From Candidatus Thorarchaeota archaeon AB_25 (lineage in GTDB: Archaea > Asgardarchaeota > Thorarchaeia > Thorarchaeales > Thorarchaeaceae): a stretch of 22,249 nucleotides of DNA. Within the stretch, counting starts at the first letter, position 1, and every line of letters starts with the position of its first letter. The stretch covers positions 1 to 22,249 of the forward strand of contig MEHG01000028.1 in the NCBI GenBank assembly GCA_001940705.1. Reading direction: 5' to 3'. Positions 5,824 to 10,917 of the stretch are shown here, in pieces. Made by a program: the position numbers and the translations under genes. The notes under the pieces are model-generated. The model searched no databases, was not told the DNA's origin, and saw only the letters and a program-made list of their open reading frames with translations.

Positions 5824-7401
5824 TTGACAAAAGACCCCTCATTTGGACAATGTAGATCATGTCAATCAGACAGAGCCACACACATGTGTGAGGACTGTGG
5901 AGCAGCCTTATGTTCAGAGTGTCTTGAATCAAGATCTAGTGAGTACACCGTTTGTAGTGACTGTCATCACACCCTTGGTTCTCCAATGCCCGGTGAGAAA
6001 TTCGAAGAGTGTCCACAGTGTGAATCGAAGGAGCTAAGCAAGGGAAGAAAGACTGTAGACATATGTCCAAGATGTCACTCCTCAAGAGTAGTGTTTTTGG
6101 AAGACCGAAGAAGGACACTGGCCTTGGACATGCGACATGCAATAATGTCAATTCAATACGGGCACACAAAACTCAGAGAGTTCGCAAACAAGCTTGCAGG
6201 CTCAAAGAGACTACTTGTATCACTTAGGATGGCTAACTTTCTACATTATAGATGGATTGAGGAAAAGATTGAGAGCATGCAGAGTGAGCTCCCAGCTATC
6301 AAGAATAGAATTTCTAGCCAGGCCGAAATCATTGCGAAAAGGATGGCTGCTGAAACTAAAGACTTCATAGATTATACGAAGTGGAATCCTACGCAGTTCC
6401 CATTCATTGAAGGGATAACAAATAGGATCACAGAGATGGGCATATACTACAAACAAAATGTCGACGAATCACTTGAATCTCTTAGAGGAACGCTAAAGGA
6501 TGTCAGAAGACAACTTGATGGACTTGACTACTACAAGGGACAATTCACTGCATTCTATGAGTACGGTCAGCTTTCCGTTGGAGAACTTCCAGTCTGTGCA
6601 CTTCCTGAAATCAAAATTACAGGGAGCGATTTTCTCAAGAATGATAAGGCCTTTGGAACACTTTTCATCACCAATAAAAGACTCCTCTTCATTGCTGAAA
6701 CTGGACGAGTCCGGAAGAAGATGGAAACAGTCTTTGACTTTCCATTAATCTATTTGAAATCCATTGAAGAAGACGGACGATTAAGAAAGCGCGTAGTTCT
6801 GAAACTGAAACAAGGAGAAATCAAAGCATCCTGCTCAGATCAGACAAAGAAGGTTCTTCCGGATTATATTGAGATTGCTAGGAAGTTTGAGAAGTATATT
6901 CAAACAGACATGCAAAGGGTCAGGAAGATTGAACAGGCCGATATCAGTACAAGTGACGTGAGGCTCAAAATCGAAGGCATGGTTTACTCACTTCTTTCTA
7001 CTAATGACAGGTCACAGTACAATGAAGAAATGCCTTTGATGCGACCAGTTCCAAGACCTCGGGTCGGTGATTGGAAATCGACACCTATTCGTCATTATCC
7101 CTATGATGGCTACTACAGGAAACCTGAATCATTCCATGATGAGCTCGACCGAGTCATTGGACAATATGATCAGAGACCAAGTGCACGACCAACTTACGAT
7201 GCAAGTCCTAGAGTGCATTCATTGCAAAGAGATGCAGCATCAATTGAAAATGCAATTCGGGATGCAGTACATATGCTACGTAGTGGGCAGCTTGCTGCTG
7301 AAGACTTCATTAGGAGATACAGAGATCTGATGAGGGATTCGTATCACAACAGACGTGAGATTGAACGTGTCACAAGAGAAACTCGAGACAAGCTCTGGTA
7401 A
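5824..7401 (+). CDS. Uncharacterised multi-zinc-finger protein with a central PH-like (GRAM/GLUE-type) domain, encoded in the ESCRT neighbourhood
   Basis: 525-aa ORF.
- Start: TTG at 5824, preceded by GGAGG at 5812-5816 (7-nt spacer).
- Residues 10-84: six CxxC pairs, CRSC-x8-CEDC-x4-CSEC-x10-CSDC followed by CPQC-x14-CPRC.
- Residues about 100-250: predicted helical.
- Residues about 255-350: KAFGTLFITNKRLLFIAETGRVRKKMETVFDFPLIYLKSIEEDGRLRKRVVLKLKQGEIKA, a PH-GRAM/GLUE-like pattern.
- C-terminus: a Pro/Arg/Tyr-rich low-complexity stretch followed by a basic helix.

The coding call is solid. The function is inferred. Confidence 0.8.
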   Translation: MTKDPSFGQCRSCQSDRATHMCEDCGAALCSECLESRSSEYTVCSDCHHTLGSPMPGEKFEECPQCESKELSKGRKTVDICPRCHSSRVVFLEDRRRTLALDMRHAIMSIQYGHTKLREFANKLAGSKRLLVSLRMANFLHYRWIEEKIESMQSELPAIKNRISSQAEIIAKRMAAETKDFIDYTKWNPTQFPFIEGITNRITEMGIYYKQNVDESLESLRGTLKDVRRQLDGLDYYKGQFTAFYEYGQLSVGELPVCALPEIKITGSDFLKNDKAFGTLFITNKRLLFIAETGRVRKKMETVFDFPLIYLKSIEEDGRLRKRVVLKLKQGEIKASCSDQTKKVLPDYIEIARKFEKYIQTDMQRVRKIEQADISTSDVRLKIEGMVYSLLSTNDRSQYNEEMPLMRPVPRPRVGDWKSTPIRHYPYDGYYRKPESFHDELDRVIGQYDQRPSARPTYDASPRVHSLQRDAASIENAIRDAVHMLRSGQLAAEDFIRRYRDLMRDSYHNRREIERVTRETRDKLW

Positions 7402-7403
7402 TC

Positions 7404-8021
7404 CTATACACCAAGTTCCCGTTCCAATGCCTTGATGTCTTCCTCAAGAGAGTCAGCTTCACCTGCTGGTCTTGTAGCTATAGGAGCATCAGCCAATCCA
7501 GCCTCAGCATCAATTTCCTGAAAGGCAGAGGACAAGTCCTCAGAGGTTATTTCCATGGTTGAATCAAGTGCCTCATCAGAAATACTTGCCTCAATCTCGA
7601 ACTCCTCAAGGCGGCGAGCAATCTCATCAACATTGGCAACAACCTTTGAAGCATCACTACCATCGCCAAGCATTCCAAGGATTTTTGCCACCTCTTGAAG
7701 AGCTTTTTGTGTCTTCGCAGAGGTCTGAGCACGATTCAGGTGAGCCAGAATCTTTAGTATTTGCAGACGTGACTTGTCAACAGAGAGCGCATATCTGCGA
7801 AACCGCACCATCTCAGTGGCATATGTTCGATAAGCTTCCGTCTGACCAGCCTTTCTTGCACGTACTGCACGTGCTTTTGTATCACGTTCTTCTTTCTCCA
7901 ACTTGTTCCTTTGGCGCGCTAGTTGTTTGGACAAAATCCTGAGGCGGCTGGATATCTCACCGATGTCCGGTTTCTTTCTACCCCAGGAAAATGCCTTTCT
8001 AATTGAACCCAAGAATCTCAC
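7404..8021 (-). CDS. ESCRT-III subunit (Snf7/CHMP family)
   Basis: 205-aa ORF with the ESCRT-III layout.
- A basic N-terminal segment (MRFLGSIRKAFSWGRKKPD).
- A long basic helical hairpin (LRILSKQLARQRNKLEKEERDTKARAVRARKAGQTEAYRTYATEMVRFRRYALSVDKSRLQILKI...).
- An acidic C-terminal half ending in an amphipathic helix (SLEEDIKALERELGV).

It is divergently adjacent to vps4. The start is a GTG at 8021 or a TTG three codons later, which is preceded by GGTGA. Confidence 0.85.
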   Translation of the reverse strand: MRFLGSIRKAFSWGRKKPDIGEISSRLRILSKQLARQRNKLEKEERDTKARAVRARKAGQTEAYRTYATEMVRFRRYALSVDKSRLQILKILAHLNRAQTSAKTQKALQEVAKILGMLGDGSDASKVVANVDEIARRLEEFEIEASISDEALDSTMEITSEDLSSAFQEIDAEAGLADAPIATRPAGEADSLEEDIKALERELGV

Positions 8022-9385: not shown

Positions 9386-10123
9386 TTGGGCGTTAGGGAG
9401 AGAAAGAAAGAGAAGACAAAGACTAAGGAATCAACCGAACCTGCAGAACAGGAACAGGTTGAATCATCTCCCGATGTCAAAGAGACCATAACTGAAGAAG
9501 AGGTTCATACACCAGAGGTTGTTGTTGAAGTCGCAGAAGCTGTAGAAACCATGGAGCCTGAGAAACAGGCAGAGGCTGTAAATGAAACAGTTTCAGAGGT
9601 TGTTGTGGCAGAACCCGATTTCGTGATGCCTAGTTGGGGAGATGTTGAGGAAACTGAATGGATGTACGGTATACCGACCCGAGAGGAGGATAGAACCCTC
9701 TGGGCAGAGGAATGGTCAGACTATCTATTGGAATGGACCAAGGAGAAGAAAGTACATGTTCTCTCACTGGCCACCATCATCAGTGAGCCGCCATTCAAGG
9801 ATTTGCGAAACAAGGTGGACTCATTCAAGGCGATTGCAGCAGTCCTAATTGACAAAGAAGTTGCTGAGTGGGTAGACAAGAAAAAGCGACAACTAAGAGT
9901 CTATTGGAGGCCTCTTGAGGATTGGGTGGACATCCTCTATCAATGGGCACTCAAAACAGGAAAGCTCAGGCTCGATGTGAAATCAATAGTCATTCAGGAA
10001 ATAGATGAAGACTTTGCCACCTTACCGGAGAAGGACATACAAATTGTGCTAGCTCTCATGGTGAAGAAAAAACTGGCAGAATGGATTGATGAGAAGAGAG
10101 GAGCAATTCTGATTTCCACATAG
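9386..10123 (+). CDS. vps25: ESCRT-II subunit Vps25 homologue (tandem winged-helix) with an acidic N-terminal extension
   Basis: 245-aa ORF. The core (residues about 88-245) closely resembles eukaryotic Vps25 as I know it. In particular, AEWVDKKKRQLRVYWRPLEDWVDILYQWALKTGK matches the Vps25 block LEW.DK.K..F.I.WR.PEEW...IY.W....G, and a second winged helix follows (FATLPEKDIQIVLALMVKKKLAEWI). The TTG start at 9386 lies 3 nt after the vps4 stop, with GGAGG at 9370-9374. Alternative starts are the internal ATGs at codons 56, 81 and 93. Confidence 0.88.
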   Translation: MGVRERKKEKTKTKESTEPAEQEQVESSPDVKETITEEEVHTPEVVVEVAEAVETMEPEKQAEAVNETVSEVVVAEPDFVMPSWGDVEETEWMYGIPTREEDRTLWAEEWSDYLLEWTKEKKVHVLSLATIISEPPFKDLRNKVDSFKAIAAVLIDKEVAEWVDKKKRQLRVYWRPLEDWVDILYQWALKTGKLRLDVKSIVIQEIDEDFATLPEKDIQIVLALMVKKKLAEWIDEKRGAILIST

Positions 10124-10125
10124 AA

Positions 10126-10917
10126 TCAGTAAGCACCTGTGTGTCTTGGATCAGAATTATCACGAGCCCGGAGTCCAGGGAAGTAATACCGACCACCTGT
10201 TGAAAAACGGATGTCTGCAACAGCCATCCCTGCTTCTACTAAACTGGATAATACTTGTCGAGCATGGTCCTCAGACCATTTGAGTTGCATAATGACTTCT
10301 TCCACAGAAACATACCCTTTGGACGCTGCTAAATTGATCACATCAGCTTGGTCACGTCTTAATTCGAGTGGTCTAAGCTCTACGACCTTAACCCCACCTC
10401 TGAGTGTACGTATTCCAGGAATGAGACCGTTTTCAGCAACACGGTTCACAGCTTCAATGACATCATTGTATGTTACAGATTCGATCTCAGGAAGACGTCG
10501 AACAACCTGGACAATTAACTCTGCTAGACCCATGAGACCCTTCGACGAGTGCTCTGTTGCGACATCAAGTATGGCGAGACCGATGTAGTCATAGAATTGG
10601 TCTAATGTCATACCCTGAAGTGACCGTCTTGGTGCAAGACCCCCAAGTCGAAGTAGAGTTGCTGCTTCAGGATAGGCTTCGATAATCCTTTCACTTGCTA
10701 CAAATGTGCCAATATCAAGACCAATCCGTTTCATGTTCTCAATCTGTGAACGAACATCGTGTAGAAGAGCTTGTGACTCCCTTTGGTAAGAACGATTATC
10801 CACTGCACCGAGATCGTAGAGTTTCTTCAACTGGTCTAATGTGGCGATTGAAGCAAAGAGTTCAGAGTGAAGTCGCTCGTGCATCGGATTGTGTCCCTTC
10901 GTTTTTCTAATCCGCAC
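10126..10917 (-). CDS. vps22: ESCRT-II EAP30-domain protein (Vps22/SNF8- or Vps36-like)
   Basis: 263-aa ORF. The C-terminal winged-helix pair reads GLMGLAELIVQVVRRLPEIESVTYNDVIEAVNRVAENGL...KGYVSVEEVIMQLKWSEDHARQVLSSLVEAGMAVADIRFSTGGRYYFPGL. The block GYV.V.E....LKW....ARQVL..L..EG.A..D closely matches SNF8/Vps22 as I remember it. The start is a GTG at 10917 or an ATG at 10884 (MHERLHSELF...). Confidence 0.88.
   Translation of the reverse strand: MRIRKTKGHNPMHERLHSELFASIATLDQLKKLYDLGAVDNRSYQRESQALLHDVRSQIENMKRIGLDIGTFVASERIIEAYPEAATLLRLGGLAPRRSLQGMTLDQFYDYIGLAILDVATEHSSKGLMGLAELIVQVVRRLPEIESVTYNDVIEAVNRVAENGLIPGIRTLRGGVKVVELRPLELRRDQADVINLAASKGYVSVEEVIMQLKWSEDHARQVLSSLVEAGMAVADIRFSTGGRYYFPGLRARDNSDPRHTGAY

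Follow-up and report, generated by a model that had tools for sequence, protein, structure and literature searches.

The question raised by positions 5824-10917 of the DNA of Candidatus Thorarchaeota archaeon AB_25 analysed here is how an archaeal gene cluster built from eukaryote-like ESCRT parts (endosomal sorting complex required for transport) could be organised, as the first-pass annotation had found ESCRT-III, Vps4, Vps25 and EAP30 genes there with no ubiquitin or ESCRT-I genes in view. The whole stretch of 22,249 nucleotides is referred to as the window, and all coordinates, unless another locus is named, are window positions 1-22,249. The AB_25 genome is said to have been first described by Zaremba-Niedzwiedzka et al. 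in 2017. A direct string comparison found five proteins of the locus to match, at 100% identity, the ThorAB25 entries that Hatano et al. 2022 (Nat Commun 13:3398; PMC9192718) give in their Supplementary Data 1, namely ThorAB25_08990 (labelled SB, for steadiness box, and compared from M21), ThorAB25_09000 (ESCRT3A), ThorAB25_09010 (Vps4), ThorAB25_09020 (Vps25) and ThorAB25_09030 (Vps22). Because of this identity, the interval is assigned as the core ESCRT locus of this archaeon, ThorAB25_08990 to ThorAB25_09030, consecutive tags that run in the same order as the genes. The novelty that the first-pass annotation implied is thus lost, as the exact locus had already been published and used experimentally (Hatano et al. 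2022; Makarova et al. 2024, mBio 15:e00335-24; PMC10936438), its proteins having been synthesised as constructs for yeast two-hybrid assays (Hatano et al. 2022). Asgard ESCRT loci inform the origin of eukaryotic membrane trafficking, and the points that go beyond the cited literature for the AB_25 locus are the start codon of the SB gene and the match of its PH domain to GLUE domains. Overall, it is considered very probable that this is a five-protein core ESCRT locus with an ESCRT-I-like SB adaptor, for which a mechanism leading from the adaptor to Vps4 can be inferred.

The window was mapped by open reading frame listing and six-frame inspection, and families were assigned by Pfam scans with curated cut-offs. 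The locus consists of the following features (lengths in amino acids, aa, or nucleotides, nt):

5824-7401, plus strand: zinc-ribbon/coiled-coil/PH/steadiness-box (SB) protein, 525 aa; ThorAB25_08990, with a weak Pfam bPH_3 match
7404-8021, minus strand: Snf7/ESCRT-III protein, 205 aa, by Pfam; ThorAB25_09000, 'ESCRT3A'
8022-8164, no strand: divergent intergenic region between the ESCRT-III gene and vps4, 143 nt, read from the sequence
8165-9382, plus strand: Vps4, 405 aa, by Pfam; ThorAB25_09010
9386-10123, plus strand: Vps25, 245 aa, by Pfam; ThorAB25_09020
10126-10917, minus strand: EAP30 protein (Vps22-type), 263 aa, by Pfam; ThorAB25_09030

The four ESCRT signatures noted in the first reading of the sequence were recovered, with the Snf7, AAA/Vps4_C, ESCRT-II and EAP30 profiles above the Pfam cut-offs. 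In particular, Snf7 (PF03357) matched residues 25-176 of the ESCRT-III protein with 42.6 bits (E 6.5e-11; cut-off 27.3). Matches in the PDB to CHMP1B (2.4e-9), CHMP2A (4.7e-6), CHMP1A and CHMP3 (5.9e-4), together with a large distance from Snf7 (0.012) and Heimdall ESCRT-IIIB (0.68) and with BLAST clustering of ThorAB25_09000 with HeimAB125_14010 and Lokiarch_37480, place the local protein by similarity in the Vps2/24/46 (CHMP1/2/3) class. Its C-terminus (...SLEEDIKALERELGV) presents by inspection the spacing L-x3-I-x2-L, a putative amphipathic MIM1-like helix. Regarding Vps4, Pfam gave AAA with 134 bits (4.9e-39), AAA_lid_3 (7.7e-14) and Vps4_C with 23.7 bits (cut-off 21.3). The MIT domain fell under the Pfam threshold (22.6 vs. 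30), but a phmmer alignment of residues 12-391 with human VPS4B ran from end to end and covered MIT as well (1e-84), and the N-terminal MIT domain is recognised through this alignment. Vps25 matched ESCRT-II (PF05871) with 53.1 bits (E 5e-14; cut-off 27), the Asgard structure 7pb9 ('Tandem WH domains of Vps25') with 1e-33 and human VPS25 with 1.5e-6; its N-terminal ~95 aa (9386-9670) form an acidic, low-complexity extension before the tandem winged helices. Finally, the EAP30 protein matched PF04157 with 54.4 bits (E 1.9e-14; cut-off 26.8), and its similarity to human SNF8/Vps22 (1.4e-17) and not to VPS36 (0.82) assigns it to the Vps22 type.

As a separate observation on the published ESCRT-III names, Lokiarch_37480 (labelled ESCRT3B) grouped by BLAST with ThorAB25_09000 and HeimAB125_14010, both of which are labelled ESCRT3A. 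Moreover, Lokiarch_16760 (labelled ESCRT3A) grouped with HeimAB125_14020 (labelled ESCRT3B), the comparison of Lokiarch_16760 with ThorAB25_07240 being non-significant (E 9.3). By these groupings, Lokiarchaeum thus appears to carry the A and B labels of Hatano et al. 2022 the other way round from Thorarchaeota and Heimdall.

The first gene of the locus encodes what Hatano et al. 2022 termed the Thor 'steadiness box' protein. An AlphaFold2 model of its full length (mean predicted local distance difference test, pLDDT, 69), together with alignments, gave the following predicted parts, with a disordered linker (residues 395-459) ahead of the C-terminal hairpin:

5824-6096, plus strand: three zinc ribbons, residues 1-91 (CxxC pairs C10/13, C22/25, C30/33, C44/47, C63/66 and C81/84)
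6097-6543, plus strand: coiled-coil or three-helix stalk, residues 92-240, from AlphaFold2
6586-6882, plus strand: PH domain, GRAM/GLUE-like, residues 255-353, from AlphaFold2 and Foldseek
7207-7398, plus strand: Vps23/TSG101-type steadiness-box helical hairpin, residues 462-525, from AlphaFold2 and a family profile

The six CxxC pairs were invariant in an alignment of 16 Thorarchaeota SB homologues and were all kept in distant non-Thorarchaeota relatives as well; AlphaFold2 placed beta-hairpins in this region (residues 1-91), where zinc binding is predicted. The stalk helices (residues 92-133, 139-177 and 189-240) were modelled with a pLDDT mostly of 76-90, and after them the full-length model has a sandwich of seven strands closed by a helix (residues 256-353). 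When the full 525-aa model was compared as a whole, Foldseek placed DH-PH RhoGEF proteins at the top ranks; this candidate was rejected, as the root-mean-square deviation exceeded 20 Å and only 'long helices + PH' was shared.

The start of the SB gene was considered next to the published one. The protein has 525 aa from TTG 5824, and 505 aa in its published form from ATG 5884 (M21). The former start is preceded by GGAGG 7 nt upstream, and 525 aa is the called length of most Thorarchaeota SB homologues among the matches listed. These came from a homologue search that yielded 168 matches, the best 120 of the 168 being at least 52% identical, and nearly every one of these 120 with a source name was named Thorarchaeota. 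Furthermore, the first CxxC pair (C10 and C13) lies upstream of M21 and is kept even in distant non-Thorarchaeota relatives. Because of the GGAGG element, the 525-aa homologues and the conserved C10/C13, the true start is probably TTG 5824, 20 codons ahead of the annotated one, and the published 505-aa construct probably misses two of the four cysteines of zinc site 1. Such a truncated first zinc site could influence the folding of the SB protein and the published two-hybrid outcomes, whether negative or positive. This point was not found in the cited papers and goes beyond them.

The C-terminal hairpin (residues 462-524/525) was modelled with a pLDDT of 83-92, and its motif is common to the Thorarchaeota SB proteins and to wider relatives in alignment. 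A profile of the SB region built from 30 family members matched the yeast Vps23 ESCRT-I core (2p22_A with 2.6e-6, 2f66_A and 2caz_A) and also human TSG101 (6vme_B, 1.2e-4), with a weak match to VPS37B. Moreover, Pfam Vps23_core was matched by 22 of these 30 members. On this profile evidence, the hairpin is identified as a Vps23-type steadiness box. The protein as a whole belongs by its architecture, and by its link to a recognised relative, to the Znr_CC_PH_SB family (cog.011556), which Makarova et al. 2024 considered a likely ESCRT-I component. This link is given by the Loki-type member P0137, which was found by the profile of the Thorarchaeota SB proteins with 4.8e-44 and lies in the context L35Ae-X-MetE-Snf7, Table S2 of Makarova et al. 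2024 giving the context L35Ae-X-MetE-Vps20 for the cog.011556 protein of Lokiarchaeum GC14_75. The Thorarchaeota members share with this family three zinc ribbons, a coiled coil, a PH domain, a C-terminal steadiness box and the linkage to ESCRT-III. However, they are shorter (~525 aa vs. 650-900 aa) and adjoin a Vps2/24/46-class ESCRT-III gene and the Vps4/ESCRT-II operon instead of a Vps20-class gene. A profile search with the Thorarchaeota SB proteins over 1.84 billion cluster representatives yielded 111 relatives, many of them 480-910 aa long and matched over the zinc-ribbon, stalk and PH parts.

A second steadiness box, of the Vps28 type, is found at the other end of the locus:

10672-10872, minus strand: Vps28-type steadiness box on the Vps22 N-terminus, residues ~16-82, from Pfam, profile and tblastn searches

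The Vps22 N-terminus matched positions 2-60 of the Pfam VPS28 profile (E 0.0098), and tblastn placed Odin Vps28 (1.8e-5) and a Heimdall Vps23-Vps28 fusion (6.5e-6) onto 10672-10872. A PDB search with a profile of the Thorarchaeota N-termini agrees, its first four matches all being yeast Vps28. In addition, Table S3 of Makarova et al. 2024 gives an HHpred probability of 99% for the Vps28-type steadiness box of the SMTZ1-45 Vps22 orthologue, and the SB-fused Vps22 is described there as cog.002769. Each of these tests is weak singly, but all of them agree on a Vps28-type steadiness box fused to Vps22. The locus thus encodes two steadiness-box modules, one of the Vps23 type at the C-terminus of the product of 5824-7401 and one of the Vps28 type at the N-terminus of Vps22, and the earlier statement that no ESCRT-I genes were in view does not survive.

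The start of Vps22 bears on the spacing to its neighbour. From GTG 10917 the gene begins 53 nt from the aspS stop, as first reported, while from the published ATG 10884 (252 aa) the gap is 86 nt. The latter start is preceded by AAGGG 8 nt upstream, and the alignments of distant Thorarchaeota orthologues begin at residue 12, so that ATG 10884 looks the better start of the two. In other Thorarchaeota, genes were inserted between aspS and Vps22 (L008, 8884-9951; L011, 3307-3645; L026, 3757-4551; L027, 8840-9957; L028, 8839-9920; and L029, 7962-9086; coordinates of the respective loci). Their products include a Cys-rich protein of 355 aa, one protein of 112 aa, another of ~250 aa that is common to L026-L028, and a small Cys-rich protein. 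A hidden ESCRT-I gene at this place was considered and rejected, as the inserted genes resemble no ESCRT part. Because these unrelated genes interrupt the adjacency in several Thorarchaeota species, neither the spacing of 53-86 nt nor co-transcription with aspS is, by this comparison, a conserved feature.

The occurrence of the locus was evaluated by scanning the EAP30 protein against one genome per species, which resulted in 27 loci. The majority of the records were named Thorarchaeota and the remainder carried generic names (Promethearchaeota, uncultured archaeon). The protein was 68-92% identical across these 27 Thorarchaeota species genomes, which, with the five identical ThorAB25 proteins, bears out the Asgard origin first proposed. 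Furthermore, the same genes were found at 100% protein identity on four metagenome contigs of ENA. The order TFB-ArgRS-PmbA-TldD-SB-ESCRTIII-Vps4-Vps25-Vps22-AspRS was kept in 27/27 species loci up to the limits of the contigs, with the exception of the unrelated genes between Vps22 and AspRS in some of them. Within the block, conservation was lowest for Vps25 (45-81% identity among the Thorarchaeota loci vs. 75-96% for Vps4). That the contig could be a eukaryotic contaminant or a chimera instead of an archaeal locus is given practically no credence: beyond the eukaryote-like protein families themselves nothing was found in its support, whereas the TFB is archaeal, the genes are compact and intron-free with a 3-nt spacing and GGAGG sites, and the idea is refuted by the repetition of the gene order in the four independent ENA assemblies and in the 27 species genomes.

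Conserved order also raises the explanation that the SB gene is no functional ESCRT part and adjoins ESCRT-III merely through a frozen 12-kb synteny block of Thorarchaeota that includes housekeeping genes. The SB gene adjoined ESCRT-III in all 23 Thorarchaeota species loci reaching that position (23/23), and the housekeeping flanks (TFB, ArgRS, TldD/PmbA and AspRS) were as fixed in position as the SB gene, so that synteny within Thorarchaeota alone cannot settle a functional tie between the SB protein and ESCRT. Four distant relatives were informative in this regard:

L034, 8001-10747: SB relative of 508 aa, in tail-to-tail overlap with two tandem Snf7 genes
L035, 8001-14955: SB relative of 649 aa, with a Snf7 gene 4.3 kb off
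L036, 8001-11857: SB relative of 671 aa, in the context L35Ae-X-MetE-Snf7, as in Table S2 of Makarova et al. 2024 for Lokiarchaeum GC14_75
L032 (GCA_019058315.1), 7757-13673: SB relative of 555 aa, with no ESCRT gene within 10 kb

A Snf7 gene was thus located within 0-4.5 kb of the SB relative in 3/4 distant loci, in neighbourhoods that otherwise differed. Because this linkage recurs in unrelated neighbourhoods, independently outside Thorarchaeota, it supports a functional tie between the SB protein and ESCRT. The frozen block is consistent with L032, where the relative has no ESCRT neighbour; nevertheless, the SB gene bears a Vps23-type steadiness box, its relatives in three other lineages also stand beside Snf7 genes in unrelated neighbourhoods, and Hatano et al. 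2022 report a two-hybrid interaction between the Loki SB protein and Vps22. An adjacency by synteny alone is accordingly rated as very improbable, and the SB protein as an ESCRT component is preferred.

By BLAST typing, the ESCRT-III adjacent to SB genes outside Thorarchaeota was of the Vps20/32/60 class, and L034 had both classes, the SB gene overlapping the Vps20-class gene tail-to-tail with the Vps2/24/46-class gene next to it. The open reading frames without a strong Pfam match beside the Snf7 genes of L034 and the SB homologue of L035 gave no ESCRT-II signal. In Thorarchaeota, the Vps20-class gene has relocated, and it is the Vps2/24/46-class gene that the SB adaptor abuts. As for L032, the SB relative adjoins a Roadblock-Arf/Ras GTPase fusion, a 360-aa HTH_47/NPRL3-like winged-helix protein and a Ribophorin_I-like protein, which is a different, trafficking-like neighbourhood.

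The search for the ubiquitin system agreed with the absence first reported. With ubiquitin, Vps23 and Vps28 sequences from Loki, Heimdall and Odin as queries, tblastn detected no ubiquitin or UEV either in the window or in the ±10 kb around the 27 Thorarchaeota loci, nor was any E1/E2/E3 or separate Vps28 gene found in these same regions, and the intergenic gaps contained no ubiquitin-sized open reading frame with a matching family. The 488-nt gap upstream of aspS was considered as a place for ubiquitin and rejected, as it holds a MarR-like winged-helix gene. In the literature, Thorarchaeota are reported without ubiquitin and UEV-Vps23, and they 'seemingly lack true ubiquitin homologues' (Hatano et al. 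2022). The second ESCRT-III protein is ThorAB25_07240 (Supplementary Data 1 of Hatano et al. 2022), ~175 locus tags from the cluster, and it was found neither in the window nor within ±10 kb of any Thorarchaeota locus; two ESCRT-III proteins are also listed each for Thorarchaeota SMTZ1-45 and SMTZ1-83 (Table S1 of Makarova et al. 2024). The first-pass annotation had proposed a reduced or dispersed arrangement, or else a role in ESCRT for the zinc-finger/PH gene, and each proposal found backing: the second ESCRT-III lies elsewhere in the genome, ubiquitin and UEV-Vps23 are reported missing, and the zinc-finger/PH gene carries the Vps23-type steadiness box.

Compared with the clusters of ubiquitin and ESCRT genes in Odin-, Heimdall- and Helarchaeota (Hatano et al. 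2022), the Thorarchaeota locus is alike in clustering ESCRT-III, Vps4, Vps25 and Vps22, with vps25 co-directed with vps4. It differs in that ubiquitin, E1/E2/E3, UEV-Vps23 and a Vps28 gene are missing within ±10 kb and in that the second ESCRT-III is unlinked. With the eukaryotic ESCRT-I headpiece (Vps23/TSG101, Vps28 and Vps37 hairpins; 2p22, 2f66 and 6vme) it shares hairpins of the Vps23 and Vps28 types. However, the Thorarchaeota locus presents no UEV domain, Vps37, Mvb12 or Vps28 C-terminal domain, and the Vps28-type hairpin, a separate subunit in eukaryotes, is here fused to the ESCRT-II protein Vps22.

From these parts, the following mechanism can be proposed. The PH domain of the SB adaptor would bind the membrane, and its zinc ribbons perhaps a target. 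The Vps23-type hairpin of the adaptor would pack on the Vps28-type one of Vps22, in the manner of the eukaryotic ESCRT-I headpiece. Such a pairing would couple 'ESCRT-I' directly with ESCRT-II and would need no Vps28 C-terminal domain, UEV or ubiquitin. A Vps22 homodimer with Vps25 would then recruit the Vps20/32/60-class ESCRT-III (ThorAB25_07240, unlinked), with which the local Vps2/24/46-class subunit would co-polymerise. Finally, Vps4, through its MIT domain, would disassemble the polymer, leading to membrane scission. In Hatano et al. 2022, two-hybrid assays showed self-interaction of Thorarchaeota Vps22 and the interactions Vps25-ESCRT-IIIB and Vps4-ESCRT-III, besides that of the Loki SB protein with Vps22.

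Several points weigh against this proposal. The assembly order is taken over from eukaryotes by analogy, and the contact between the steadiness boxes of the adaptor and Vps22 is a prediction. The PDB matches of the Vps28-type steadiness box, obtained with a profile of the Thorarchaeota N-termini, had marginal E-values of 0.05-0.08, the top four all being the yeast Vps28 N-terminus. The SB hairpin of the window taken alone matched Pfam Vps23_core weakly (E 0.016), its assignment coming from the family profile. Moreover, the GLUE domain ranks first for the PH domain by a narrow margin (7.9e-5 vs. 1.2e-4 for MTMR2), and the L032 relative stands apart from any ESCRT gene within 10 kb.

The cellular process served by this machinery (vesicle formation, division or repair) is not decidable from sequence. 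A machinery that is real but serves chiefly cell division or abscission and the repair of membranes, like Cdv, and not cargo sorting, with the adaptor as a CdvA-like anchor, is possible though on balance unlikely. A relationship between the hairpins of SB and CdvA has been reported, and Pfam CdvA was matched by 2/30 members of the SB family. In the same direction, the best NCBIfam matches were CdvC for Vps4 (1e-78, residues 14-403) and CdvB for ESCRT-III, both below cut-offs, NCBIfam having no models of Vps25, Vps22 and the SB protein; and with ubiquitin and UEV missing in Thorarchaeota, the hallmark of cargo sorting is gone. On the other hand, ESCRT-II is present (Vps22 and Vps25), which in eukaryotes is chiefly known for the sorting of endosomal cargo and for which the Cdv system as described in the cited papers has no counterpart, and the ESCRT-III protein is much nearer to CHMP1/2/3 than to CdvB (2.4e-9 for CHMP1B vs. 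7.6e-4). A Cdv-like role would be compatible with the adaptor-to-Vps4 mechanism, from which it differs in the cellular process alone.

The PH domain of the SB adaptor was modelled in isolation with a deeper alignment (AlphaFold2, pLDDT 86), which gave seven strands and a C-terminal helix; Pfam matched it weakly (bPH_3, E 0.0089). Foldseek returned the human EAP45/Vps36 GLUE domain as its top PDB match (2hth_B, E 7.9e-5), closely followed by the MTMR2 GRAM-PH (1.2e-4) and GRK2 PH domains, with the yeast Vps36 PH domain (2cay) at rank 8 and the mouse EAP45-GLUE domain (2dx5) at rank 13, and the probability was 1.00 for the top-listed GLUE, GRAM-PH and PH domains. On this model, the PH fold of residues 255-353 is certain, while a specific affinity to GLUE is only suggested. 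The Vps36/EAP45 GLUE domains (2hth, 2dx5 and 2cay) were the best structural match of this domain, although the sequence identity was only 16-18%, the margin over other PH domains small and the known homology that of the PH fold. In addition, the Thorarchaeota module sits in an SB-bearing, ESCRT-I-like protein and not in a winged-helix ESCRT-II subunit. In yeast Vps36, too, a PH domain occurs together with zinc fingers. The GLUE domain of Vps36 as nearest solved structure yields a testable hypothesis on the origin of this subunit: an Asgard zinc-ribbon and PH module would have been the source of the GLUE domain (and NZF) of Vps36 by fusion to a Vps22 paralogue, and in the ubiquitin-less Thorarchaeota it would recognise membranes or targets directly, the Vps23-type and Vps28-type hairpins uniting 'ESCRT-I' and ESCRT-II in one complex. 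This scenario is put forward as speculative and, at present, improbable rather than favoured.

Regarding the gene junctions, the vps25 TTG start (9386) lies 3 nt past the vps4 stop (9382), with a GGAGG element within the 3' end of vps4, just as described at first. In the divergent intergenic region, the palindrome TTTAAA (8068-8073) stands at a distance of 47 nt from where the ESCRT-III gene starts and of 92 nt from the start of vps4, and could be a putative TATA-like promoter element serving both genes. Scans of the window for tRNA and Rfam families gave no matches, and a scan for sigma-70 promoters and intrinsic terminators gave counts at or below the shuffled expectation, with models that are not applicable to archaea. 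The remaining features of the window, whose tfb, argS, tldD/pmbA and aspS flanks named at the outset were all found by Pfam, are as follows:

1-624, minus strand: TFB, by Pfam, truncated at the window end
1013-2920, plus strand: ArgRS, by Pfam
2922-4271, minus strand: PmbA/TldD, by Pfam
4272-5771, minus strand: TldD/PmbA, by Pfam
10971-12329, minus strand: AspRS, by Pfam
12462-12674, minus strand: MarR-like winged-helix protein, 70 aa, by Pfam MarR_2
12818-13474, plus strand: alpha/beta hydrolase, by Pfam
13486-14760, minus strand: Ras-family GTPase with a 220-aa N-terminal extension, by Pfam
14983-15615, plus strand: leucine-rich repeat (LRR) protein, by Pfam
15758-22249, plus strand: LamG/DUF2341 protein, >2164 aa, by Pfam, continuing past the window end

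The gene at 12462-12674, in the 488-nt gap upstream of aspS, reached 27.6 bits against the MarR_2 cut-off of 27. This 70-aa winged-helix gene was kept in 24/27 Thorarchaeota species loci with 69-94% identity, and was upstream of aspS wherever the contig also had aspS; it was unmatched in L016, L023 and L031, in at least two of which the contig ends early. Finally, the trio at 13486-22249 (GTPase, 210-aa LRR protein and LamG/DUF2341 protein) was kept as a block in many Thorarchaeota loci. The GTPase is of the Ras/Roc family, its 220-aa N-terminal extension matches no family, and its gene was in duplicate in L008, L014 and L030. The LRR gene is transcribed divergently from it, and this pair of an LRR gene and a Roc-like GTPase gene is reminiscent of ROCO proteins.

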